This document shows, in pieces, positions 2,689 to 62,652 of a stretch of 64,000 nt of DNA. Below the pieces are notes generated by a model, which saw only the letters and a list, made by a program, of their open reading frames with translations, did not search any database and was not told where the DNA came from. Within the stretch, counting starts at the first letter, position 1; each line of letters starts with the position of its first letter. This DNA comes from an uncultured bacterium (GTDB taxonomy: Bacteria; Patescibacteriota; Dojkabacteria; SC72), in contig CAIMEL010000024.1 of NCBI GenBank assembly GCA_903840015.1, forward strand, positions 1,057 to 65,056, written 5' to 3'. Both the position numbers and the translations under genes were made by a program.

Positions 2689-3777
2689 ATGCCATTCTTC
2701 AATAAAAAGAAAACAGTACGAACATCACGTATAATAATGCCCTTGAAGAAACAAAACTATATACCCAAAAGAAGTAAGAAAGGTATACAGTTTTTTAAGA
2801 AAAAAGAGCACCACGGAAATAGACAACAAAAATCCCTGTCTCCGGTTTTCAAAATTTTATTCCTATTCCTAATATTTGGCGCAATCATATATGCAGCAGT
2901 ACTAATCGTTGAAAAGATGAGAAATAACGATCCCCTTGCAAACTACGAAACCCAATATGTTATTGGACTTAACAATATCCCAACCTATCCTTTCTCACAA
3001 TTCATCTTCCAGAAAACACTCGAGGAACCATCTGTTGCCAACTTTATTAGCAATGGGAACTCTGCTTACCGATTACCGTTAAACAAAACCGTTGACGATG
3101 CTTACCTGTTCTACTCAGAAGAATTACCTCTCTTAAATTGGCAACATGTGCTCTCTGTTCCTGTTGGGTCCGAAGAAATGAAATCAGGGGAATACTGGGT
3201 AAAAGACAATGAGGCACTAAGAATATATTCCAAATTTAACGATATTTGGTATGAGATGATTACCGTCGAGGAGGCTTACAACGGCCTCAGCGAAAGAGTA
3301 AAGAAAGAGGTAGAAAGAGATCTGCTCTTGGCGAACAAGGAACTGCAGGATCTACTTCCAGACTTCCCGTGGATTCTCAAAATACCAAAGGAATATGTGA
3401 TTTCATACAGATCTGCAAATTACAAAGACAATCGTACAGTAGAATTAAAGAAACTAGGCTCTGAAGAGAAAATAACTCTCACACCAATAACAGCCAACAA
3501 TGGAAGCCCTTTAGATACATATTTGGATAACTATATAAAACTTCTGAATAAAGATTCCAAACAAAATTGGGGAATAACAAAAACGGTTCTAACCTATACT
3601 GAATATGGTAGAGCACTGAAAGGTGACATAAATTCCGGTGAAGAAAGACACGAGGTTGCCGTCCTAATAAACCCAAAAGACAACTTAGTGTACGTACTAG
3701 ATTGCAACATCACGGGGAATCCGTTTTTTGAATTTGTTTTAGCCAATTTAAAACCACAAGACTCATTCAAGTATTAA
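2689..3777 (+). CDS. hypothetical membrane-anchored protein (basic N-terminus, one TM helix, large extracytoplasmic domain)
   Basis: KKKT-rich N-terminus, then hydrophobic ILFLFLIFGAIIYAAVLIV. No catalytic motifs recognised. Confidence 0.45.
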   Translation: MPFFNKKKTVRTSRIIMPLKKQNYIPKRSKKGIQFFKKKEHHGNRQQKSLSPVFKILFLFLIFGAIIYAAVLIVEKMRNNDPLANYETQYVIGLNNIPTYPFSQFIFQKTLEEPSVANFISNGNSAYRLPLNKTVDDAYLFYSEELPLLNWQHVLSVPVGSEEMKSGEYWVKDNEALRIYSKFNDIWYEMITVEEAYNGLSERVKKEVERDLLLANKELQDLLPDFPWILKIPKEYVISYRSANYKDNRTVELKKLGSEEKITLTPITANNGSPLDTYLDNYIKLLNKDSKQNWGITKTVLTYTEYGRALKGDINSGEERHEVAVLINPKDNLVYVLDCNITGNPFFEFVLANLKPQDSFKY

Positions 3778-5227
3778 GGGCTTCTTTCAAATCAATTGAT
3801 ATCTTGCGATTTTTTACTACAGTATTAATATCATCGACAGATGCTTTCTTTAGACCCTCAATATCTTTGAATGTTTTAATAAGTTCTTTACGACGGACAG
3901 AACCAATACCCGGAACTTTCTCTAGTTGCGAATTGATCATTGATCTAGAACGAGCTTTTCGATGATGCAAAATTGCAAATCTATGAGCTTCATCACGAAG
4001 TTCAATCAAAATCTGATTGTTTTCTATCTTTGCTTCAAGAATTGAATTATCCTTTACAAGCCAAAACTCATCCACTAACCTACCACCCTTTCTCTTAAAT
4101 CGTTTACCCTTAGAAATACCAAGCAATGAAATCCCTTTTGGGATACTACTCTTCAATGTTGATAGCTGAGTTTTCCCTCCATCTACAAGCAGTAACTCTG
4201 GCAGACTAGCATATTTTTTCAAATTTTCTTTTGCAAACCTTCTCTGAAAAACCTCAGCAAGCATTTCAGGATCATTTGGTGTTTGTAGTTTCTTAATTTT
4301 GAAAATTCTATATTCCGAAGAAAGTATCTCTCCATCTACAGCAACGACCATGGAACCGTATGCATGTTGTCCTTGAATATTTGAGATATCGTAACATTCT
4401 ATTCGATTTAGTTTTGTAAGACCTAATTCTATTTTAAGTAATTCAAATTTGCTTTTTAACAAAGCTTTTCGCCTAGAGGCATAACTTTCTTCTGTATCTT
4501 CCCTTTCAAAATCAATCTTTTCCGAGAGATACTTCATATCCGTAATTCTATCTCTCAAAAGAGCAGCCTTTTCATACTGCTTAGATTTGGAATACATTCG
4601 CATATCCTTTTCTAATTTAGAGATATGGCCCATTTTCTTACCTTGAAGAAATTTAATTATCTCATTTATATTTCTTCTGTATTCTGCCTTTGATATATGG
4701 CCCTGGTATGGACCGGGACAAAGTCCAAGGTGGAAATAAAGACACTCCCTGTTTTGTTTCTTGGTACAGGTACAAAAAGGATACATTTTTCGTAGATAGG
4801 AAAACATTCTCTTGATTGTATATCCACTTGGGTATGGTCCAAATAATCTACCTCGAGCTACCTCTCCATTCGTTATTTTCTTTACAATTTTAACAGTTGG
4901 GAAGACCTCTTTAGTAGATATATATATCCAAGAATACGATTTATCATCTTTTAGGTCCGTATTATATTTAGGCTGATACTTTTTGATTAAGAGAGACTCC
5001 AAAACTAGAGATTCAATCTCGTTATTCGTTTCTTGAATCTCCACATTATTAATGAATGGCAACATTAAACGAATCCTCGGTCTGTCGTACAAATCGTTTA
5101 GGAAGTATGACTTTACCCTACTGCGGAGATTTATTGCTTTCCCAACATAGAGTATGACACCATCCTTATCTAAGAATTTATAGATACCTGGCTTTTCTGG
5201 GAGTAATTCTAATTTGTCTAATTTCAT
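3767..5227 (-). CDS. uvrC: Excinuclease ABC subunit C (short, 486 aa)
   Basis: N-terminal GIY-YIG (KPGIYKFLDKDGVILYVGKAINLRSRVKSYF), UvrB-interaction region, C-terminal HhH (IGSVRRKELIKTFKDIEGLKKASVDDI). Confidence 0.85.
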   Translation of the reverse strand: MKLDKLELLPEKPGIYKFLDKDGVILYVGKAINLRSRVKSYFLNDLYDRPRIRLMLPFINNVEIQETNNEIESLVLESLLIKKYQPKYNTDLKDDKSYSWIYISTKEVFPTVKIVKKITNGEVARGRLFGPYPSGYTIKRMFSYLRKMYPFCTCTKKQNRECLYFHLGLCPGPYQGHISKAEYRRNINEIIKFLQGKKMGHISKLEKDMRMYSKSKQYEKAALLRDRITDMKYLSEKIDFEREDTEESYASRRKALLKSKFELLKIELGLTKLNRIECYDISNIQGQHAYGSMVVAVDGEILSSEYRIFKIKKLQTPNDPEMLAEVFQRRFAKENLKKYASLPELLLVDGGKTQLSTLKSSIPKGISLLGISKGKRFKRKGGRLVDEFWLVKDNSILEAKIENNQILIELRDEAHRFAILHHRKARSRSMINSQLEKVPGIGSVRRKELIKTFKDIEGLKKASVDDINTVVKNRKISIDLKEALNT

Positions 5228-9704: not shown

Positions 9705-10439
9705 ATGGCAAAAATAGACTTGAAACCAGTCTCTGGTCTTCCGATATCATACGAAAACGACCAGATTGTAACAAAAGATATGTCTTTCAAAGAGAAGAAA
9801 GTTGTAACTATCGATACTATTCGCCCACAGTTACTCAATAAAGAACTAGATTGCCCAGACATCTTCTATATCAAATACAAAATGCTTGATCAAAATGATA
9901 TATACCGAGAGAAGGGAGTACGCATTAATGTATATACTATGAAACCAAACCTAGCAGGTATTGAATTTGTGAAGACCAAAGTAACCAGATCCCGAAATTA
10001 TACGAGAATAATAGAAATTCTTTACGGTGGAGCAATAGTATTACTTCAAAGATACAGAACACCTAAAGACAACAAGATATACAAGCTTGTTGCTAAAAAA
10101 GGGCAAAAAATAATAGTACCTTCTGGGTATGATTTGGTTATTGTGAATACTCGTCAAAATTCAACCTTAATTTTTGCTGAATTCTCATGTACCAAAGCTA
10201 TTTCAAGAGTTGTGCTTGATGACAATAGCGGTATGGCATATTATGTTATTAGGAAGAATGCAAAACAGGAGGTTGTTAGGAATCCAAATTACAAGATTGT
10301 TAATGAACCTGACAAGATAGATATGGAGAAACTCATTCAATCACTTGGTATGACACCAAAGACCCCTGTAATAAAACAAATAATAAGAAAATATGAGAGG
10401 TTTGATTGGTTATTTAAAGAAAATACTGTTTCTTTCTAG
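9705..10439 (+). CDS. hypothetical protein with a possible cupin-like beta-barrel
   Basis: The beta-strand-rich stretch GIEFVKTKVTRSRNYTRIIEILYGGAIVLLQRY...KGQKIIVPSGYDLVIVN has cupin topology but lacks the usual His metal ligands. It overlaps the next gene by 47 nt. Confidence 0.3.
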   Translation: MAKIDLKPVSGLPISYENDQIVTKDMSFKEKKVVTIDTIRPQLLNKELDCPDIFYIKYKMLDQNDIYREKGVRINVYTMKPNLAGIEFVKTKVTRSRNYTRIIEILYGGAIVLLQRYRTPKDNKIYKLVAKKGQKIIVPSGYDLVIVNTRQNSTLIFAEFSCTKAISRVVLDDNSGMAYYVIRKNAKQEVVRNPNYKIVNEPDKIDMEKLIQSLGMTPKTPVIKQIIRKYERFDWLFKENTVSF

Positions 10440-13323: not shown

Positions 13324-13523
13324 TCTTCCAGAAAATACCCTATTGATTTACCAAGCTCTTTTGCAATTTTTAAAAGGTTGCAAACGGGAGGGTAAACATT
13401 ACCTTTCTCATAAATACTAATAGATTTGTCAGAGAGACCAACCCTTAGGCCTAAATCTTTTTGAGAATATCCTTTCTCTTCTCGGGCAGTTCTTAATCTT
13501 TTTGCAAATATTTTACTATTCAT
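13320..13523 (-). CDS. XRE-family helix-turn-helix transcriptional regulator (67 aa)
   Basis: Cro/C1-type HTH: YSQKDLGLRVGLSDKSISIYEKG. Confidence 0.75.
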   Translation of the reverse strand: MNSKIFAKRLRTAREEKGYSQKDLGLRVGLSDKSISIYEKGNVYPPVCNLLKIAKELGKSIGYFLED

Positions 13524-14098
13524 AAAGTATTACCAAAAAATAATTTAAGAACCTTGTCTAAAAACGACTCCTTCTTCTCAGGAAAAGATCTGTTTCCTAC
13601 CATATAGTATTGATTCTCAGATACTGCATAGCTCTTCCTGGAATCCTCTAATATCTCTTTGTTTGTAAGATATGGTTGATCTTTTCTTGCTCTTAAGAAC
13701 TCAATAGCTGAATTTTTTTCATTAAGTAATCTCTTTAGTTCTAGATATTCATCACTTTTATCCTTAATATACCCTTTAAGTTTCAAAATACTATTTTCGG
13801 AAAGCTTGTTTCTTTCAAGCAAACTAGGATATTCCAAAGCTTTCTCAATAATCCTCTTATGTTCATCACTCTCAAGAAGTTTCATTACAATCTTACTTTT
13901 ATCTCCTACAGAGTATCTATGGAAAGAAAGCTCTCTAGAGCTTGGTTCTCGACCTAATACTGATAGATAAATCTTTTTAATCTCTTCACTCTTCTCAGAT
14001 GCAGAATCAACAGGAAAGAAGCTTTTGTAAGAACCACCTTTCATATAGTTATCTGTACTATCTCCCTTATCCCATATTGGAACATCAACGTTTTTCAT
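13520..14098 (-). CDS. hypothetical protein with a DUF4214-like segment; its stop overlaps the start of the HTH gene
   Basis: IKKIYLSVLGREPSSRELSFH resembles the DUF4214 consensus (Y..LGR.PD..GL..W). ATGA-type overlap with the downstream XRE gene suggests co-translation. Confidence 0.35.
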   Translation of the reverse strand: MKNVDVPIWDKGDSTDNYMKGGSYKSFFPVDSASEKSEEIKKIYLSVLGREPSSRELSFHRYSVGDKSKIVMKLLESDEHKRIIEKALEYPSLLERNKLSENSILKLKGYIKDKSDEYLELKRLLNEKNSAIEFLRARKDQPYLTNKEILEDSRKSYAVSENQYYMVGNRSFPEKKESFLDKVLKLFFGNTL

Positions 14099-22215: not shown

Positions 22216-22782
22216 ATGCTTAAAAAGAAAATTGCAAGAACAATATCCGAAATATCAAATGGATTCCTAACCATGATACTAACTCCACTCATTGGAGTCA
22301 TATCATCTACACTAACTACAAAAGACAAACTCATATACTCCCTAACATACCTCCTCATACCCATCCTACCCTACCTACTACTAAAAAAACTTGGAAAGAT
22401 TACAGATTACGAATTCACAAAAAGAGAAGAAAGACCCCCATACTTCATAACAGTAACACTACTCTTCGGTATAACATACCTAGTACTGAAAGAAACAGGT
22501 ATACAAATTTTAACCAACATATCACTCAATGTGTTCCTGGTATCAGGAATCATAACTCTCATAACCTTCTTCTGGAAAATATCTGGTCATATGACCTACT
22601 CAACCATCCTCTTCGCAACACTAATCTACATATTCAATCAACCATTACTCCTTCTACTCTTCCTCTTCTCCCCTTTCATTGCTTGGTCTAGAATAGTGTT
22701 AGAAAAACACACACTTTCTCAAGTAACTTGGGGAACATTACTTCCTCTCACTATTTCCATTCTCATTTATTGGGGTTTTTGA
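22216..22782 (+). CDS. PAP2-family membrane phosphatase
   Basis: Multi-TM. SGH (WKISGHMTYS) and SRIVLEKHTLSQV fit PAP2 motifs 2 and 3 (PSGH ... SR-x5-H-x3-D). Confidence 0.5.
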   Translation: MLKKKIARTISEISNGFLTMILTPLIGVISSTLTTKDKLIYSLTYLLIPILPYLLLKKLGKITDYEFTKREERPPYFITVTLLFGITYLVLKETGIQILTNISLNVFLVSGIITLITFFWKISGHMTYSTILFATLIYIFNQPLLLLLFLFSPFIAWSRIVLEKHTLSQVTWGTLLPLTISILIYWGF

Positions 22783-25385: not shown

Positions 25386-26225
25386 CTAAGGTTGTAATAC
25401 TCCTTCAGTACTACCATTCACAGATATCACTACACTTTTAACAGTATCAAACTGTTTTAATGTATTTTCAATCTGAGATCTTACTCTAGAAACAAGACAT
25501 GAACCACCAGCAACTTCATTCAGTTTCTCATTTAAATCAACATATGCTACCCCTTCAGAAATTTTCAAAGAGTTAATACTTACACCCTCAGGAAGAGAGG
25601 TAAAATACCCTGCTGTTTTTTCATCTGCTATTGGACCAAGAAAAAGCTGTTCTAGTGAAGCCCTACCTACTCCCAATGTTTCAGGAATACTTCTTGTAAC
25701 AGAGTATGTATCTTCACAATTTAAAGCTGAGGGATCACTCTTGCTATTTCCAAAATATACTTTAACAGAGATATCCTCCGTTATGACAGCACAGGTCTTG
25801 CTAAATGTAACAGGGATTGAGAAAGAATCATCGTTCTCTGGTAAATCAGAAGGATTATCTTTTTTCAATACAATATTTCCACTACCTACGCATCCAGAAT
25901 CACACTTTATCTTTGAGTAAAAAGAAATATCTCCCTCCTTCGTCCATTCTTCTTCTGTTAAAGCTTGAGTCTCTAAAACGGTCTTTCCATCTACAACAAT
26001 ACTTACAGGGAAAGAACCTTCAAAGAACCATTGATTTGATATCTTTCCAGAAAGTTCAAATTCACAACCAACTTCAGTATTAGGTTGAGGATATGTTAAT
26101 TCCAAGGGTATACCTTTTTCGGTTTTCAATGAGGTATCTTCAGGAAATTTTTCTCGAAGAAAGTAATATCCTACTCCAAGAGTAAGGATGAAGAGAAGAA
26201 GGATTACTAAGAGCTTTTGACTCAT
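25386..26225 (-). CDS. secreted protein with a GerMN-like C-terminal domain
   Basis: Signal/TM at the N-terminus. C-terminal LNEVAGGSCLVSRVRSQIENTLKQFDTVKSVVISVNG resembles the GerMN (germane) domain. Confidence 0.35.
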   Translation of the reverse strand: MSQKLLVILLLFILTLGVGYYFLREKFPEDTSLKTEKGIPLELTYPQPNTEVGCEFELSGKISNQWFFEGSFPVSIVVDGKTVLETQALTEEEWTKEGDISFYSKIKCDSGCVGSGNIVLKKDNPSDLPENDDSFSIPVTFSKTCAVITEDISVKVYFGNSKSDPSALNCEDTYSVTRSIPETLGVGRASLEQLFLGPIADEKTAGYFTSLPEGVSINSLKISEGVAYVDLNEKLNEVAGGSCLVSRVRSQIENTLKQFDTVKSVVISVNGSTEGVLQP

Positions 26226-26299
26226 ATGTATATATATTCTAAGTTATTAGGATATTATACAACTTTTTTATACTAGTTTCCTTTCAAATCAATTAACTC

Positions 26300-27091
26300 C
26301 TAATCTTGGAAATCCAGATAATTAAAAATCTTCAAGGCGGTCTCTCGAACAAATGAATCTTCTGTCTCCTGGAGGATTCTTACCTCGTAGAGATACTCCG
26401 GCGTTGCAAAAATTGTGTAAGAGTATTCTGACAGACCTTCTTTAACCGTCAAATCAATTACTTCTTTACTCCACCTAGAAGTTTTTTCAAAAGACACTAG
26501 GAAATATTCTGCAGCTTCCAAGCTCATTTCCTTTGACACATCATCATACGCATTGTATTTGGCAATTCCATTCTTTAAATTCTCTAAAAGAGTATCATTA
26601 TTAAGCTTCGCTATATTAGGGATACAGGTAACAGAAATTGCAGCTGGTATATATCCACTCCCCCCCTCCTCTGCAGGGGCAAACATCATAGTCTCTTGCT
26701 CATGAGAATCACTATTCCAAGTTTCTAACTTTGACAACATATGGGGATATACGCCCCCATGAGGGAATTGCCAAAAACTTCCATCGGTTGGGTCAACATA
26801 TGGATTTGAACGAGGAGGCACAGGAAAACTAACTGAACATTCCTCCGCCAACTTGTATTCCCAGCCGGAGGGAAGAGATTCTTTCTTTTCTTCGGTATCA
26901 ATTGGTAGATCTATTTCATTTTCATCTACATCTGAATTCTGTATTGATTGCTTCCCAAGGTAAAAGCCAACAGCACCAGACACAAAAATAGCAATAATTA
27001 ATAACAGGAGAACAATTAAATTGAAACGTTTGGATTCGGTCTTAGTGAGATTTGGTAATGGTTCAGAATTGGGAATTTGTTGATCCAGCAT
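26300..27091 (-). CDS. hypothetical membrane-anchored extracytoplasmic protein
   Basis: TM helix LIVLLLLIIAIFVSGAVGFYL; no recognised motifs. Confidence 0.4.
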   Translation of the reverse strand: MLDQQIPNSEPLPNLTKTESKRFNLIVLLLLIIAIFVSGAVGFYLGKQSIQNSDVDENEIDLPIDTEEKKESLPSGWEYKLAEECSVSFPVPPRSNPYVDPTDGSFWQFPHGGVYPHMLSKLETWNSDSHEQETMMFAPAEEGGSGYIPAAISVTCIPNIAKLNNDTLLENLKNGIAKYNAYDDVSKEMSLEAAEYFLVSFEKTSRWSKEVIDLTVKEGLSEYSYTIFATPEYLYEVRILQETEDSFVRETALKIFNYLDFQD

Positions 27092-27122
27092 GGCATCGGC
27101 AGTATAACAAATTATTCGAATA

Positions 27123-27221: not shown

Positions 27222-27737
27222 TTAGGAGAATTTGTTTTCAAGGATATTCCAATCAATCTTCTCAATCCAAAACCTTGTAATATCACCAACATTCTCATTC
27301 AACATCCTCAATTCATCGAAATTCATCCACCACTCTTTTTCTGATTCGTTCCTGTCAGGATGAAGTTCTTCACCCTTCCAAAGAGCAATATAGAATTTCG
27401 TGTATTCGGTTTGACTCTCAAATCTGAAAATATGGGTATCCAACTCATGGAACTCTTCTCCTTCAAAACCTAACTCCTCTTGAAAGCCCCGAGCAACTGC
27501 ATCGGTTAGAGACTCTCCTGACAAAACATGCTCCCCAAGAAAACAACTCTTTCCCCCATCAAACTTCTTAGTAGTAGATCTCTTCGTCATCAAAACTCTC
27601 TTCGTCTTAGCATCATACAAAGTAAAATGCACGGCTGGGTGGATTAAACTTTTGTTCCTGTGACATTCAGAGCGTACCCTGTTACCAATCACATTGCCTT
27701 GCTCATCAACAATATCGACAATCTCTGTATCACTCAT
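27222..27737 (-). CDS. NUDIX hydrolase
   Basis: Nudix box GEHVLSGESLTDAVARGFQEELGF (G-x5-E-x7-REU-x-EE-x-GU). Confidence 0.75.
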   Translation of the reverse strand: MSDTEIVDIVDEQGNVIGNRVRSECHRNKSLIHPAVHFTLYDAKTKRVLMTKRSTTKKFDGGKSCFLGEHVLSGESLTDAVARGFQEELGFEGEEFHELDTHIFRFESQTEYTKFYIALWKGEELHPDRNESEKEWWMNFDELRMLNENVGDITRFWIEKIDWNILENKFS

Positions 27738-28429
27738 AGCTTTTTTCTTAAAAATTTAGGAACAGGATTAAAACTCCTCCTATGTATCTCACAAGCCCCA
27801 TACTCCTTCAAAGCTTCAATATGTTTCTTAGTACCATATCCAACATGTGACTCAAAACCATATTCAGGATATTTTTTAGCATAATCATACATAATCCTGT
27901 CTCTTGTAACCTTTGCCAAAACTGATGCAGCAGAAATACTGTAATGTTGTAAATCTCCTGCTTTAATCTTCACCATCTTGTATTTAGGAATAGTAAGGAT
28001 ATTCTCCCCATCCGCTATAATGTAGTCAACCTTCGAATCCAATTTTCTTTCAACAATATCCAAAGCTATACTCATAGCTTCTAAAACTGCCTTCTGTATA
28101 CCCATACGATCAATATCTTTCGCACTAACAATACCCACCCCAAAGGCTGTAGAAAGTTCTTGAATCTTTTCAAAAGATAACTCTCTCTGTTTCTCTGTCA
28201 TCTTCTTACTATCTCTAACCTCGGGAACAACCTGATTCCCATTCAATATCACAACTGCACCAGCTACAACAGGCCCTGCCAAGGGACCCCTTCCTGCTTC
28301 ATCCAGCCCTACAACATAATGGAAACCTTCACTCCATAATTTCTTCTCTAGTTCTGTATCTGGATATATCATATGTATATATGTTAGCATATATGATATG
28401 AAAAAGATTTTTCTAACCCTTCTCTGCAT
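27734..28429 (-). CDS. rnhB: Ribonuclease HII (the true start is probably the internal Met at MIYPD.., about 19 codons in)
   Basis: VVGLDEAGRGPLAGPVVAGAV and RNase HII catalytic residues; ATGA overlap with the downstream NUDIX gene. Confidence 0.85.
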   Translation of the reverse strand: MQRRVRKIFFISYMLTYIHMIYPDTELEKKLWSEGFHYVVGLDEAGRGPLAGPVVAGAVVILNGNQVVPEVRDSKKMTEKQRELSFEKIQELSTAFGVGIVSAKDIDRMGIQKAVLEAMSIALDIVERKLDSKVDYIIADGENILTIPKYKMVKIKAGDLQHYSISAASVLAKVTRDRIMYDYAKKYPEYGFESHVGYGTKKHIEALKEYGACEIHRRSFNPVPKFLRKKL

Positions 28430-28670
28430 CTTCTGTCTTTACCTTCCAACATCTACTGTTCTTGCTCAAACAGAAACCAAAGAACCAACTTCTGTTACAA
28501 TTGAGGAAAGCACAGAGACACAGCAGAATGAAACAGAAGAGAATCAACCTCAAGTTACTGAGACTAATACCGAATCCAAATATTCTTTCTCAACAATTCT
28601 TCTAGCTATACTTGCACCCTGTCTGTTAATAGTGATTACATATTTTCTTCTTCGCTTTTTTAAATTCTAA
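28398..28670 (+). CDS. small secreted, C-terminally anchored Thr/Glu-rich protein
   Basis: Signal peptide LLCIFCLYLPTSTVLAQT, low-complexity T/E/Q linker, C-terminal TM helix ILLAILAPCLLIVITYFLL. Confidence 0.4.
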   Translation: MKKIFLTLLCIFCLYLPTSTVLAQTETKEPTSVTIEESTETQQNETEENQPQVTETNTESKYSFSTILLAILAPCLLIVITYFLLRFFKF

Positions 28671-28697
28671 ATATTTAATTTTACTTTTACAAAACAT

Positions 28698-29066
28698 ATG
28701 AGAAATGAAGACCCTATGGCCTTTTTCAAAGGAATGCTCTTCGGGGCAGTCGCAGGAGCCGTTGCTGGCTTACTTCTAGCTCCCAAATCAGGGAGGGAGA
28801 CTAGAGAGGATATCAAGAAGCTTGCCGTTGATATGCAGGAAAAAGCAGTCGATATATATGAGGATGCGAAAAAAGAATTAAGAAAGAAGATTGCTGCAGT
28901 TAAGACAGCAGGAGAATTAGTTGATGAGACAAAGTACAGAGTATTGGTCAGACAGGTTGTAAATGAATACAAGAAAGATGCTAAAGTAACAGCTTCTGTT
29001 GCAGAGAAACTAGGAGAACAGCTTAAAGCTGATTGGGTACTAGTAAAAAAGGAATTGATGAAGTAG
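28698..29066 (+). CDS. YtxH-like (DUF948) general stress protein
   Basis: GMLFGAVAGAVAGLLLAPKSGRETREDIKK matches the YtxH N-terminal motif; coiled-coil remainder. Confidence 0.55.
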   Translation: MRNEDPMAFFKGMLFGAVAGAVAGLLLAPKSGRETREDIKKLAVDMQEKAVDIYEDAKKELRKKIAAVKTAGELVDETKYRVLVRQVVNEYKKDAKVTASVAEKLGEQLKADWVLVKKELMK

Positions 29067-29156
29067 TAAAGGATTAAGAGAGGTGCCAAGAAGCATAGTG
29101 GTTAGACCACATATCAAGGCACCCCCCTGTCCTTTTTCCAAGAGAGAGAGTGAAAC

Positions 29157-30125
29157 TTACTCGGTGGGCATTTCAAACTTACCGAGTTCGAGACCACTAC
29201 AGGATGTGAATTTACTCACAAGAACTCCTGCGTCCCGAATTCGGACTAAATCAGGCCATTCTGCCCATGAAAATGGACCTGAGTGGATACCAGCAATGAT
29301 GATGAAGTCTCCAGTCGGCGGGGCCGAGAGGAAGTACTGACCATCAACCATGGTAGCTGGTATATACACATCCCGATAGATTACAGAGAATTCCTCTGGG
29401 CTAAACATATACACCCTTTGGATTTCCCACCACGGGAAGAGCCAACCGTCGATTTCGCAACTCCACGTCCAGGAGCACTTGTCCACAAGTGTCCACATGA
29501 TATGAAGGTTCCCAGCATCTGGATGAGTCATGAACTCGACTGTGAAGTCGGAGCCACAAGCTTCATCGCAGGCAGGGGTGTACGGAATGGCGGGAGGTAC
29601 GTACGGTGGTTTTGGAGGTTTAGGTGTTTCTGGTTCAACACACAAAGGGTCATCGGCCAACAATGTTGGATCCTACTCACAGACCTCAGGGTCTGGTTCA
29701 ACACACAAAGGGTCATCGGCCAACAATGTTGGATCCCATTCACAAACCTCTGGATCTGGAGGTACGGTGACTAACCTAAACGATGCGTGGGAGAGATCTT
29801 GAATCTTCCCATTCTGATTGGTGACACTGCTCGTTACCGTAGCGCTTCCTGTCGGTGGATTTACATTCCCATACACGACAGTCGTGGATGCCTTGTAGCA
29901 TGTTTCAGCCACCAAGTATCCAGCGGGAGCGTTGAAGGTATACGACGTACCAGACAAACCGTCCACTTTAGTCCAATCACCTCCTGAAGGACAAGTATCT
30001 TGCCCACCTCCATTGGCAAGAACGGTTGATGTGCCGACTGCCGCAAGGGCGAACAGAAAAACCAGAAATACTGCAAGAACTTTCTTCATTTTTCCCATCC
30101 TTTTCTCTCTCTTGTTAAAGAACAC
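29157..30125 (-). pseudogene. secreted Cys-rich repeat protein interrupted by a single in-frame TAG; both pieces are in one frame, so this is a pseudogene, a stop-codon readthrough or a sequencing error
   Basis: Signal peptide MKKVLAVFLVFLFALAAVGTSTVLA. ORF 29673..30125 and ORF 29157..29663 share a frame, separated by TAG at complement(29673..29675). Tandem 21-aa repeat CEWDPTLLADDPLCVEPDPEV / CE*DPTLLADDPLCVEP. About 50% GC against about 33% around it. Confidence 0.5.
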
Positions 30126-30226
30126 CGTATTATACTAATTTTTGAGAAGCACCTCAATAACTATGGGATTAAATATTGTTTTTACAATCTGGCAAAAATA
30201 CCATATTCCTAGTAAAATATTCATAT

Positions 30227-30302
30227 GCGAGAGTAGTTCAGTTGGTAGAATGTCTGCTTCCCAAGTAGAAGGTCGCGGGTTCGAATCCCGTCTCTCGCTC
30301 CA
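30227..30302 (+). tRNA. tRNA-Gly (anticodon CCC), CCA encoded
   Basis: GCGAGAG-TA-GTTC AGTTGGTA GAAT-G-TCTGC TTCCCAA GTAGA-AGGTC-GCGGG TTCGAAT CCCGT-CTCTCGC-T-CCA. Confidence 0.85.
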
Positions 30303-30322
30303 TAATATATAGTTAAAGCAAA

Positions 30323-31045
30323 ATGACAGACCCTATTCTAGATCCATCAGAAAATCCTTTCAAAGAAACCTTAATTGTAAGAACAGAGGATACAGAATAT
30401 CCATGTTTAGAGTATGACCCAACAAAGAAAACCTTGATTGTATTGATTGGTGGATCTGGTTCTGGTAAAGATACAATTATGGACGCCATCCTTGAACAAG
30501 GTAATGCTATCCATGTACAAACAGCAACATCAAGAAACATTCGTAAAGGGGAAGATCCAAACAAATATCTTTGGATGAGAAAGCAGAGAGAGGGAGAAGA
30601 CTTTGAAGAATACAAAAAGAATCTCTTACGAGAGTATGACCTAGTAGAACAAGACCCCCATGATGGAAGTGTTTACGGTTTACCAAGATTAAATATTGAA
30701 AAAGCTCTAGCAAATATTGAAGATACCAGATTCCCAATATTGAGGATGGAGATAAAGGGAGCGAAACGTGTACAAGAAATCTTTGGTGAAGATTACAATG
30801 TTGTGGTGATTGGTATAAAGCCAGAGGATGAAAAAGAATTCGAAACCGCTATTAGAACAAGACAACAGGACGATCCATTACCGGAAGAAGAAATCCGAAC
30901 TCGTGTAATTGAGGCTTCACAGAAACAGAAACTTAACGATTCCTTTGCACATTTCACAATAGTGAATAGTAGAAAACCAGGAGGTTTGGAGAGATCAGTA
31001 AATTCTCTAGCATATTTACTTAGAACACTTGCTGGTACAAATTAA
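30323..31045 (+). CDS. gmk: divergent guanylate kinase-like P-loop kinase
   Basis: P-loop LIGGSGSGKDT; ATSRNIRKGE (compare TTRPPRPGE), YGLP (YGT), ILRMEIKGAK (lid/NMP-binding region), FAHFTIVN (YDYVIVND). Confidence 0.45.
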   Translation: MTDPILDPSENPFKETLIVRTEDTEYPCLEYDPTKKTLIVLIGGSGSGKDTIMDAILEQGNAIHVQTATSRNIRKGEDPNKYLWMRKQREGEDFEEYKKNLLREYDLVEQDPHDGSVYGLPRLNIEKALANIEDTRFPILRMEIKGAKRVQEIFGEDYNVVVIGIKPEDEKEFETAIRTRQQDDPLPEEEIRTRVIEASQKQKLNDSFAHFTIVNSRKPGGLERSVNSLAYLLRTLAGTN

Positions 31046-31090
31046 TATTCTTGTTAAAAAAGCGACTCTTTGTTACAATAACGTTACAAT

Positions 31091-39638: not shown

Positions 39639-40958
39639 TTACTCATATATATTTAAAATCTCTGTTGTCTTTACATTTAGTTTTCTTTCAACAACATTAT
39701 GAACATTCTGTACCAATCCCAAAGCAACCAAGGACATTATTGTAGAGCTTCCTCCAACACTCATAAACGGTAACGGTATACCTGTTGCCGGTATTGTACC
39801 AAGGTTTGTTCCAATATTTATGAAAATCTGTAAGAGAAATGCTAAACCTACACCTAGAGACAGAAGCGAAAGTAAAGGATTAGTTACTGTACGAATAGAT
39901 TTAAAAAGACAAATGACAATGATAACACCATACACCATAATGAGGAAAAGACTCCCGACCAGACCAAACTCCTCAGCGTACGAGGCAAAGATGAAGTCTG
40001 TTTCGTGTTCTGGTAAGAAATTCCGTTTACTTTGAGTTCCATTGCCAAACCCTTTACCAAAGATCTGTCCAGAACCAATGGCAATACGAGACTGATTAAC
40101 ATTAAAACCGATATCACTTTCAGTACCTGTTGGATCCAAGAATGCCTCTATACGATCTTTTTGATAGTCCTTTAGAACATGTTGCCAGATATTTGAAAAC
40201 ACAACCCCTATTAAAAGCCCTGAAAGGAGCGTAGAGATGAGCAATATTCTCCAGCTATCTCTGGCATAGTATATGAAAATGGAAAGTATTGATGCAGGAA
40301 TTAATAACAGATACCACAGAGGATTTAGTAGGACAGCCGAAAGCAAGAATGATCCTGCAATCAACGACAGTATTATTAAAAGAAGAATGTTTCGAAAAGG
40401 ATTACTTAATCCCATGAAAGAGATTAATCCCCATATCGAAAGAAGTAGTATGGCAATACTTCCATTTGGTTGAAGATATACCAATATTGCCATTGGTAAA
40501 ACCAGTATGAAGGAAAGAAGCAAGAGTAACCATTGATTATACTTGTCTTTAAAGGAAACAATGGCTGCAGTAATTAGGATAACTGTAACTTTTGCAACTT
40601 CCGAAGCCTGTAATTGAAAGCCTCCAATTACTAACCACCTTTTTACATTATTTATAGTTGGAGCAAAGAGTAAGGTCGCAACAAGTAAAGCTACAGTTAC
40701 GATGTATATAATTAATAATACTTGCCAATATTTCAAATAATTTAGTTCTAATTTTGATATTAGAAAATACAAAATAAAACCTATCAAGAGAAAAAGTAAC
40801 TGCTTGTATACTGTTTGCAAATCACCTAAACCTCCTGTTGGTAATATCTTCGTGGAGACGAGATTAACAATCCCTATTATAGAAATGATTATCGTGGAAG
40901 AAAGTAGAAACCAATCAATATGGTACACACTAGATTCTTTCTTCGAGAATATATTCAT
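39639..40958 (-). CDS. ftsW: SEDS-family cell division/elongation transglycosylase FtsW/RodA
   Basis: 10-TM protein; C-terminal IPATGIPLPFMSVGGSSTIMSLVALGLVQNV matches the FtsW/RodA signature. Confidence 0.8.
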   Translation of the reverse strand: MNIFSKKESSVYHIDWFLLSSTIIISIIGIVNLVSTKILPTGGLGDLQTVYKQLLFLLIGFILYFLISKLELNYLKYWQVLLIIYIVTVALLVATLLFAPTINNVKRWLVIGGFQLQASEVAKVTVILITAAIVSFKDKYNQWLLLLLSFILVLPMAILVYLQPNGSIAILLLSIWGLISFMGLSNPFRNILLLIILSLIAGSFLLSAVLLNPLWYLLLIPASILSIFIYYARDSWRILLISTLLSGLLIGVVFSNIWQHVLKDYQKDRIEAFLDPTGTESDIGFNVNQSRIAIGSGQIFGKGFGNGTQSKRNFLPEHETDFIFASYAEEFGLVGSLFLIMVYGVIIVICLFKSIRTVTNPLLSLLSLGVGLAFLLQIFINIGTNLGTIPATGIPLPFMSVGGSSTIMSLVALGLVQNVHNVVERKLNVKTTEILNIYE

Positions 40959-48971: not shown

Positions 48972-49014
48972 CTTTTACTAGCTATTATCAATTACCTTAA
49001 CTATAATATACTGT

Positions 49015-50100
49015 ATGAATGATTTACGCAAAAAAGATGTCCTCGATCTTCAAAATGATATTCAAGAGACAGTAAAAAGCCTTGATTTAGGAAACAAGAA
49101 ATCGGAATTAATCCTTCTAGAGAACGAAAGTATACAAGATACTTTTTGGAACAACAGAAACAAAGCACAACAGGTGATGAACCGAATATCATTGCTTAGA
49201 GATGAAATCCTGACAGCAGAGAACCTGGTAAAAGATATAGATTCTTTGCTTGAGCTTTTCAATTCAATTGAAAAAGAAACCGATCAGAATTCCCTCATAA
49301 CAGAATTCCAATCTCTCCGAGAACAGCTAGATAGATTCTCTTTGAGAAAATTTCTCTCTGGGAAATATGATTCTAACAAAGCAATTCTTTCAATACACTC
49401 CGGACAGGGAGGAACCGAATCAAATGACTGGGTAGAAATGCTCTACCGTATGTATACTATGTATTTTGACAAACAGAATTGGAAATATACAGTGCAAGAG
49501 ATAATCAAGGGAAATGAGGCAGGCATTTCCACAGTCACAATATACGTTGATGAACCTATGTCTTTCGGTATGCTGAAGAAAGAGCACGGTGCACATAGAT
49601 TAGTAAGAATTTCACCATTCAATTCCCAAGGTCTAAGGCAAACTACATTCGCAGGTGTAGAAATTCTCCCATACATTGAGGATTCGGATAACGAATTAGA
49701 AATACCTCCCAAAGATATACTTTTTAAAGCAGTTAAAGCAAGTGGACCAGGAGGACAAAATGTAAACAAAACATCATCTGCCGTACAAATCACACACATT
49801 CCTACAGGAATATCAGTGCAGTCATCAGATCAAAGAAGTCAGGCCCAGAACAGAGAAAATGCAATGAAAATATTGAAAGCAAAACTATGGAGAATCAAAG
49901 AGGAGAAACAGTTACAAAATATTGAAGATATTAAGGGGGAGTACAAGGTCGCAGGTTGGGGAAATCAAATCAGGAATTACATATTACATCCATACAAGCT
50001 TGTCAAAGATCTCCGTACAAATATAGAATCAAACAATCCTGAGCACATACTGGATGGTAACATAGAAGAGCTAGTTGAAGCAGAGATTAGAATGAAGTAA
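49015..50100 (+). CDS. prfB: Peptide chain release factor 2, a single uninterrupted ORF
   Basis: SPF tripeptide (RISPFNSQG) and GGQ loop (SGPGGQNVNKTSSAVQITHIPTGI). Confidence 0.85.
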   Translation: MNDLRKKDVLDLQNDIQETVKSLDLGNKKSELILLENESIQDTFWNNRNKAQQVMNRISLLRDEILTAENLVKDIDSLLELFNSIEKETDQNSLITEFQSLREQLDRFSLRKFLSGKYDSNKAILSIHSGQGGTESNDWVEMLYRMYTMYFDKQNWKYTVQEIIKGNEAGISTVTIYVDEPMSFGMLKKEHGAHRLVRISPFNSQGLRQTTFAGVEILPYIEDSDNELEIPPKDILFKAVKASGPGGQNVNKTSSAVQITHIPTGISVQSSDQRSQAQNRENAMKILKAKLWRIKEEKQLQNIEDIKGEYKVAGWGNQIRNYILHPYKLVKDLRTNIESNNPEHILDGNIEELVEAEIRMK

Positions 50101-61947: not shown

Positions 61948-62652
61948 ATGCTTGAAACAGAAACATATACAACAGAGATCGAACAAAGGGAGATGCACCC
62001 TCTTGTTTCTACATCTTTGGGAATAATTGGATATAGACTTTCCACTCTCCCACAAACTCCAATGTATGATGAATATCGTGCAAGCATGTTAACAAACATA
62101 GCAATACTTGAACAAGCAGAGCCCTCTACGTTAGCAAGAAAAATGATTGGTCCATTGAGTGAAGCTCTCTTCTTTACGGCTTGTAGAGAGAATCTCCAGG
62201 CCGAAATATCCATATCCACTGCACAAGAAGATATGCAAGGTGTTGATTTCTTCCTTGGGTCAGCAAAAAGGAGAATTGATGTAACAACCAATCCTGGGAA
62301 ATACTCTTCTAAAATGTTTAAGACAGACAAAACAACAATAATACTTCCTCCGAGGAGAGATTTAATAAAGGGTATCCTTTTAGAAGGCGAAGACTTCGAT
62401 ACTCGACAATATTTACGAGACATCTTCGAACTCAACATGGAGATTCTCAACAACAGATATCCCCAGTACCAAATATTAATAGCAACAAGAGCGAAAAAGA
62501 GGAACAGTTTCAATGAAGTAGCTTCCAGAGGTTACAAGAGAAGAAACCTTCATAGCAATCCAACAGGACACAGAGACAAGGTATATATGAAAGAGGCACA
62601 ATACAGAGAAGTGATTAATGTCCTCTCCATCCTAAGGAATTTCCCTACCTAG
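61948..62652 (+). CDS. hypothetical protein (234 aa); preferred over the overlapping antisense ORF 61905..62513
   Basis: Balanced, protein-like composition; starts just after the hsp20 terminator with a TATAAT box immediately upstream. The antisense ORF is Cys/Ser-rich and spans the terminator. Confidence 0.4.
   Translation: MLETETYTTEIEQREMHPLVSTSLGIIGYRLSTLPQTPMYDEYRASMLTNIAILEQAEPSTLARKMIGPLSEALFFTACRENLQAEISISTAQEDMQGVDFFLGSAKRRIDVTTNPGKYSSKMFKTDKTTIILPPRRDLIKGILLEGEDFDTRQYLRDIFELNMEILNNRYPQYQILIATRAKKRNSFNEVASRGYKRRNLHSNPTGHRDKVYMKEAQYREVINVLSILRNFPT

Follow-up and report, generated by a model that had tools for sequence, protein, structure and literature searches.

An in-frame TAG at a conserved tryptophan codon of a Dojkabacteria gene most likely marks a recent nonsense mutation in a gene that is being lost

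We analysed 64,000 nucleotides (nt) of contig CAIMEL010000024.1 (GenBank assembly GCA_903840015.1), hereafter the window, from an uncultured bacterium of the Candidatus Dojkabacteria (WS6, Patescibacteria), in which a gene on the minus strand is interrupted by a single in-frame stop codon. The gene (29157..30098, minus strand), delimited by translation and by comparison with three intact orthologues, comprises 313 codons including the internal TAG and ends with its natural stop TAA at 29157-29159. The premature TAG takes the place of Trp144 at 29673..29675 (minus strand; 'cta' on the plus strand), and the changed base at position 29674 is T where the orthologues have C (TGG). A first-pass annotation made from the letters had described two open reading frames (ORFs), 29673-30125 and 29157-29663, that share one frame and are separated by that TAG alone, which proved to be correct on the minus strand. 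Upstream of the stop an N-terminal ORF of 141 amino acids (aa) is left over (29676..30098, minus strand), which holds a Sec-type signal peptide, a beta-sandwich N-terminal domain (N-domain) and 1.3 copies of a repeated module. A promoter-like site TTGAGG-17-TATAAT (30129..30157, minus strand), located about 30 nt upstream of the ATG, is intact, as is a terminator-type hairpin (29070..29133, minus strand; -30.8 kcal/mol, z = -3.8) between the convergent ends of the disrupted gene and its neighbour ytxH. With a probability of about 0.86, we read the TAG as a genuine nonsense mutation of recent date, in which a G-to-A change hit a conserved Trp codon of a gene in the course of loss, i.e. a young pseudogene or truncated accessory gene.

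The stop lies in an in-frame tandem repeat of two 63-bp units (29629..29759, minus strand), each encoding DPEVCEW-DPTLLADDPLCVEP apart from the mutated codon. Tandem Repeats Finder located one array at 29629-29759, with a period of 63, 2.1 copies, 92% matches and a score of 227, which far exceeds that of any other tandem repeat in the window. Alignment of 29632-29694 with 29695-29757 yielded exactly five differences: four synonymous third-position changes (GAT/GAC, CCA/CCT, GTT/GTC and GAA/GAG) and TGG/TAG as the fifth, so that both methods reproduce the repeat as it had first been read. All five are confined to the first 21 nt of the unit, while the other 42 nt (45 nt with flanking bases) are identical between the copies. 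Across the TAG site, the residues read DPEVCE-X-DPTLLADDPLCVEPETPK. The unit corresponds to a mini-module of the protein family, C-x-W-[DN]...DD-x-x-C, which is found in 1-5 copies in distant homologues; its Trp is present in every module copy found across the family, with a search pattern that itself demanded W.

A search with the joined protein returned one near-identical cluster; none of its members P0001 (contig L001), P0035 (L003) and P0036 (L002) is interrupted. The three contigs are syntenic with the window, the gene being flanked by ytxH on one side and by tRNA-Gly and Gmk on the opposite side, and share 94.5% (L002) or 85-86% (L001 and L003) DNA identity with it. The codon at the stop site, for which a check of orthologues had been proposed, is TGG in 3/3 of these intact genes. 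Compared with them, the window gene has no frameshift and no further stop; the indels consist of a gap of 6 nt (2 codons) against L001 and L003, which lies in the signal-peptide region and keeps the frame, and a 9-nt linker indel in L002. In comparisons of the window gene with each orthologue, the ratio of nonsynonymous to synonymous substitution rates (dN/dS) amounts to 0.09-0.12, both upstream and downstream of the stop. The early suggestion of a very recent nonsense mutation is thus upheld by the TGG codons of the orthologues, by the otherwise open frame and by a dN/dS of about 0.1 on both sides of the stop. The related loci were obtained by exact-sequence index look-ups; protein-based scans of genome and metagenome contig sets for orthologues returned no match, and neither did DNA pattern matching for either allele in metagenome contigs.

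The truncated products are themselves on record as exact sequences, one of 141 aa (P0037; 5 contigs, the longest 110.8 kb) and one of 150 aa (P0038; 3 contigs), on contigs whose gene neighbourhood matches that of the window. These contigs stem from NCBI and from the European Nucleotide Archive (ENA) assemblies ERZ1426837 and ERZ1426820. The same TAG recurs in a further contig (L084, a k141 contig of ERZ27313369), which over 5234 nt shares 99.96% identity with the window. Searching the literature by sample accession gave no hits. An exact look-up of the window's YtxH protein retrieved 13 contigs, on none of which (0/13) an intact copy of the gene was present. The window is probably a further independent assembly, since its exact Gmk protein has no database record. 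Taken together, the nonsense allele spans one population of a Candidatus Dojkabacteria bacterium, and its occurrence in at least three independent assemblies speaks against the sequencing error that the first-pass annotation had listed among its options.

Close strains have lost the gene in other ways as well. Between contig L084 and the window there are just two base differences. One of them, at window position 29871 (minus strand), changes Tyr76 from TAT to TAG and places a second nonsense codon within the conserved N-domain; the window keeps TAT. In two independent datasets, L085 (ERZ27315056) and L086 (Logan DRR381268), both about 99% identical to the window in the flank, a segment of 923 bp (window 29252..30174) is deleted, so that, of promoter and gene, only the final 95 nt of the latter are left. 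The deletion junction shows a TAAAT / GGA[C/T]TAAAT microhomology, and the spacing between YtxH and Gmk is 334 nt in L085 compared to 1257 nt in the window. The locus retains this 95-nt 3' remnant and so derives from a deletion rather than being an empty site. There are hence at least three independent disabling events (two stops and one deletion) in one species-level lineage, in which the gene appears to be dispensable. Exact look-ups of a revertant, of a contracted allele with one repeat unit and of the 75- and 84-aa fragments of L084 were all negative. The locus had also been set apart from an old, decayed pseudogene, in which additional lesions were to be expected: the window copy is indeed open apart from its TAG, and since a second stop and a deletion were found, the gene does show such decay, though in sister strains and not in the window. 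It is rather unlikely, though more probable than decoding of the TAG, that positive selection for getting rid of a foreign surface protein lies behind the three knock-outs; such a protein could serve as a phage receptor or be recognised by the host, the bacterium being presumably an episymbiont.

Is TAG read as a stop codon in this genome at all? Among 66 crude gene calls in the window, 35 end with TAA, 20 with TAG (about 30%) and 11 with TGA, and coding density under the standard code is 92% at a GC content of 35.8%. For window genes lying no more than about 8 kb from the locus, stops were compared with those of ORFs at 28 related loci, and TAG-ending genes were found to stop within 0-1 residues of the ends of their orthologues, which interchange TAA, TGA and TAG (up to 22 Dojkabacteria loci). 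The gene ytxH (28698..29066, plus strand), for example, ends with TAG at the same position as 17 orthologues, of which 7 use TAG and 10 use TAA (end offsets 0 or -1), and the gene at 25386-26243 has five orthologues, all ending with TAA at offset 0. When all neighbouring open segments in a shared frame were surveyed, no other split gene emerged in the 64 kb, and none of the 10 tRNAs encoded in the window has a CUA anticodon. The same-frame pairs at 22689, 23813, 28668 and 50098 were rejected as candidates. Either they reflect an alternative or antisense frame across GatA and the gene next to it, or they are neighbouring genes in the same frame by coincidence. The best relatives of the neighbouring GatB, with up to 76% identity, stem from metagenome-assembled genomes of Candidatus Dojkabacteria. 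Published recoding in the candidate phyla radiation (CPR) concerns UGA to Gly and only the Gracilibacteria/Absconditabacteria, with Dojkabacteria treated as using the standard code (PMC13293708, PMC9297842). Based on stop usage, matching orthologue ends and the lack of any other split gene in the window, TAG is an ordinary terminator in this genome. An RF2-type release factor with SPF and GGQ motifs is encoded in a single uninterrupted ORF (48982-50100, plus strand). Judged from this ORF alone, the gene gives no sign of the programmed +1 frameshift site that is present in prfB of many bacteria.

Four other explanations were weighed against a young nonsense mutation. The stop and the identical 42-nt tract might have been made by a miscalled base or a mis-assembled repeat, as assemblers err at tandem repeats, the Logan contig L087 stops within the repeat and the unit 2 sequence downstream of the TAG is backed by the window and L084 only. 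However, the same TAG recurs in the window, in L084 and in the 8 on-record contigs of different lengths, the assembly k-mer of L084 (k = 141) exceeds the 45-nt identical tract, a two-copy tandem gives a unique path through the assembly graph, and the stop is situated within the unique 21-nt part of the unit, outside the identical tract; an artefact is therefore extremely improbable. Contig L087 (Logan ERR4194174) itself corresponds to window 27546-29658 with 100% identity and breaks off within repeat unit 2, 15 nt short of the TAG; short-k contigs of this type cannot report the allele because assembly breaks at the 42-45-nt perfect repeat. Translation of the TAG, an option of the first-pass annotation, would require an amber suppressor tRNA or unusually leaky UAG termination and would keep the full-length protein. 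In line with this, the downstream half is fully open with a dN/dS of about 0.1, both lesions (W144, and Y76 in L084) are TAG codons that replace aromatic residues, and promoter-like site and terminator are intact. The ribosomal protein bL9 is linked to translational fidelity in Escherichia coli. Ribosomes of Dojkabacteria lack bL9 (PMC9297842), which would fit leaky termination. Against decoding stand the share of about 30% of genes that end in TAG exactly at orthologue ends, the absence from the 64 kb of any further gene with an in-frame TAG at a sense position, for which a check had been suggested, and the failure to find a tRNA(CUA) in the window; moreover, the two lesions replace two different amino acids, the outright deletion in sister strains argues that the gene is dispensable, and the youth of the mutation fully accounts for the low dN/dS. 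With TAG as the normal terminator, a single split gene in 64 kb and close strains carrying a second TAG or a deletion, we consider decoding highly improbable. The locus resembles the stop reassignments of CPR bacteria and phages (code 25; amber-recoded phages) in having an in-frame stop at a conserved sense position in a CPR genome, but differs from them in the codon (UAG), in the restriction to one gene and in that, both in the window and in related genomes, TAG can be shown to terminate genes. Two marks of such recoding, in-frame TAG in many genes and depletion of TAG as terminator, were tested for here and neither was found. Stop-codon reassignment was reportedly the subject of work by Ivanova et al. 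in 2014.

A two-part product would arise if ribosomes stopping at the TAG reinitiated at a TTG 12 nt downstream to make a separate C-terminal polypeptide starting MLADDPLCVEPETPK. The AGGA-N7-TTG string that had been put forward as a plausible restart is present (29661..29674, minus strand; AGGA at 29674-29671, 7 nt, TTG at 29663-29661), and coupling of termination and reinitiation is plausible as many genes in the window overlap or abut. Its function as a restart did not hold up, however. The AGGA arises from the nonsense mutation itself and is a mere by-product of it, and motifs resembling a Shine-Dalgarno (SD) sequence precede only 5/67 genes, below the background of 11%. Initiation in this genome looks leaderless: a TATAAT-like box ends 4-14 nt before the ATG in 28/67 genes compared to 18.5% in composition-matched shuffles (p ~9e-6), with leaderless-type starts exemplified by the genes at 3767-5227 (minus strand), 9705-10439 (plus strand), 13520-14098 (minus strand), 39639-40958 (minus strand) and 61948-62652 (plus strand). 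Genes of this Dojkabacteria bacterium thus seem to be expressed mainly from leaderless mRNAs; the disrupted gene, unlike the largely leaderless genome, has an SD-like leader. Furthermore, TTG is a weak start codon, the polypeptide would have no signal peptide although its Cys-rich domain occurs only in secreted proteins, gene callers left the downstream ORF uncalled on all 13 contigs, and the stop at codon 76 of L084 would abolish the coupling. In a gene naturally split by coupling, the split should be conserved and the start signal should be of the genome's type; here all orthologues are fused and the signal is of another type, and a two-part product, for which no obvious function suggests itself, is very unlikely. 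The repeat could also act as a one-way rescue switch, in which slipped-strand loss of one 63-bp unit removes the TAG and restores an in-frame gene with one module, turning an OFF allele ON. The stop does lie between perfect direct repeats of 42-45 nt, deletion of 29674-29736 or an equivalent segment would restore the frame, a one-module protein is plausible given that module number in the family ranges from 1 to 5, and the perfect identity of the tract is specific to the window lineage. On the other hand, the contracted allele is not on record, all orthologues have kept two units and the event would be irreversible, hence not true phase variation; the second stop of L084 outside the repeat and the deletions elsewhere point to loss and not to a maintained switch. 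At 63 bp the unit is a multiple of three, so that changes in copy number stay in frame, and the two units at four loci are likewise not what is known from phase-variable loci. We thus give the switch only a slim chance.

Under the reading of a young nonsense mutation in a gene being lost, the ribosome would stop at the TAG and at most the 141-residue N-terminal fragment would be exported. The C-terminal domain would no longer be produced or, if made by chance reinitiation, would be cytoplasmic as the signal peptide is missing, and the 141-aa fragment is expected to be the sole product that is both made and exported. Several points weigh against this reading. Fixation of the allele within each sample is deduced from consensus assemblies, not from reads, and ERZ1426837 and ERZ1426820 are neighbouring accession numbers that may share one study or site. 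A suppressor tRNA and release factor RF1 could be searched for in only 64 kb of the genome. Out of TAG, TGA and TAA, both nonsense changes yielded TAG, for which the chance is about 1 in 4, and each lies at an aromatic codon; an amber suppressor would tolerate this pattern. Outgroup-polarised counts on the window branch gave 2 synonymous and 0 nonsynonymous changes in the C-terminal domain, and two substitutions are too few to show relaxed selection directly; such a test has no power because the mutation is too young. Finally, a complete, exportable N-domain survives the truncation and could still function.

How did the gene come to this place? At 49.7% GC compared to 35.8% for the window, it is the most GC-rich stretch of 942 bp (z = 5.3). 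Its insertion is bordered by ytxH on one side and by a tRNA-Gly(CCC) gene (30227..30302, plus strand) on the other, the latter being the only hit of an Rfam scan of the locus. At 14 other Dojkabacteria loci, tRNA-Gly(CCC) follows about 45-105 nt after ytxH and the gene is absent. Due to its atypical GC content and its absence from these 14 syntenic loci, the gene is very likely a lineage-specific single-gene insertion of about 1.1 kb that was acquired horizontally. The features of an islet beside a tRNA gene were all found: atypical composition, absence from syntenic relatives and an adjacent tRNA gene.

The encoded protein consists of a signal peptide, the N-domain, two acidic Cys/Trp modules, a Pro-rich linker and a C-terminal domain (C-domain), with a probable secreted or surface location and modules of the disulfide type. 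The N-domain (29760-29995, minus strand; about 80 aa, residues ~35-112) carries the motifs CP.GGDW.K.D.LSG, CYKAS and QDLSHASFRL, and an AlphaFold2 (AF2) model predicts a small beta-sandwich (predicted local distance difference test, pLDDT, 97-98). It is common to 33 proteins with varied C-termini, often with LPXTG-like or transmembrane anchors, and may be a surface-displayed binding head. Its homologues P0002-P0033 belong to CPR and other phyla, one of them named Nocardioides. The C-domain (29160..29582, minus strand; about 130-141 aa) with the motifs PFSII..Y.PA, G.Y.LS.P, EG.F.W.DW..LTR.RDAG and SC.G is rarer, with about 11 credible relatives (E <= 2e-5) among 13 matches at E <= 0.001 in 1.84 billion representatives. 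These homologues (P0039-P0049) always have it at the extreme C-terminus of signal-peptide proteins with unrelated N-terminal modules; its AF2 model reached a pLDDT of 85. Neither half of the protein matched a family in Pfam, NCBIfam or PHROGs, and Foldseek searches of both AF2 models against the PDB gave no significant match (best E-values 0.07-0.1 with poor template modelling scores). Both domains are undescribed families. By analogy to anchors borne by other members of the family, one may speculate that the C-domain attaches the protein to the cell surface; if it does act as an anchor, the truncation would release the N-domain rather than abolish it.

The history of the repeat can be traced further back than the stop. 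Two units are present at all four loci (window, L001, L002 and L003), and the duplication is therefore older than the split of these lineages. In the three orthologues, several further differences separate the two units, with 3 amino acids affected, and the identity of the 42-nt part (29632..29673 in unit 2, minus strand; 29695-29736 in unit 1) is peculiar to the window lineage. The 42-nt parts of the orthologues are unlike each other, DPTLLADDPLCVPP in one unit versus DETLPADDPLCV[PE]P in the other, while both window copies share the same hybrid sequence with a window-specific ACATTG and the GTTGAACCA ending; in L003, the latter ending occurs in unit 2 only. Because the window copies share one hybrid sequence while the orthologue copies differ, we infer a recent intragenic gene conversion in the window lineage. 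The first 21 nt retain copy-specific synonymous differences, e.g. GAG in unit 2 at all loci, and the synonymous changes there reflect purifying selection that acted prior to the mutation. The 5' edge of the conversion tract (29632-29673) adjoins the G-to-A change (29673-29676), with the tract directly 3' of the mutated codon. The conversion or repair event may have brought about the nonsense mutation as a side effect, unless the two lie side by side by chance.

Events of this kind are familiar. In Salmonella Typhi, Shigella and Mycobacterium leprae, young nonsense pseudogenes of accessory and surface genes have been catalogued, and the present case resembles them in its single-base stop in an otherwise intact ORF, in the intact orthologues, in the independent lesions in close relatives and in affecting a horizontally acquired gene that is not conserved across the clade. 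It differs from them in its host, an uncultured CPR bacterium with a small genome that is known from metagenome assemblies only, in that both domains lie outside described families and in the complete, exportable N-domain that is left. Concerted evolution of intragenic repeats is known from streptococcal M and alpha-C proteins and from staphylococcal repeat regions. With these surface proteins of Gram-positive bacteria, the repeat shares its in-frame units, the secreted or surface-located protein, a copy number of 1-5 and lineage-specific homogenisation; in contrast, there are two units only, without copy-number polymorphism among the four loci, and the repeat is incidental to the inactivation, except that the conversion tract ends beside the mutated base. 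The value of the finding is mainly negative: an in-frame TAG at a conserved Trp looks like recoding and is most likely a recent nonsense mutation in a dispensable gene. For annotation purposes, the locus should be treated as a pseudogene or truncated gene, and neither as a new code nor as an assembly error. It adds to the picture of gene turnover in a reduced CPR genome, in which a foreign gene apparently inserted beside a tRNA gene was kept under purifying selection in some lineages and was then lost from one species-level lineage through at least three separate lesions. The two uncharacterised extracellular domains and the Cys/Trp mini-module may in addition interest those who study the cell surface of CPR bacteria.

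The 5-kb stretch around two tRNA genes to which the locus belongs is a hotspot of gene gain and loss. L085 and L086, with flanks 96-99% identical to the window, are also without window 26265-27118 and 27243-27761. The genes hit there encode a 263-aa hypothetical protein (26300-27091) and a NUDIX protein (27222-27737), the latter gene located beside tRNA-Lys; in other Dojkabacteria, the gene for RNase HII directly adjoins tRNA-Lys. Past the deletion junction of L085, identity to the window (30166-31090 versus L085:3116-4040) is 83% on the tRNA-Gly/Gmk side compared to about 99% on the ytxH side, which suggests a recombination breakpoint or an allele replacement at this position.

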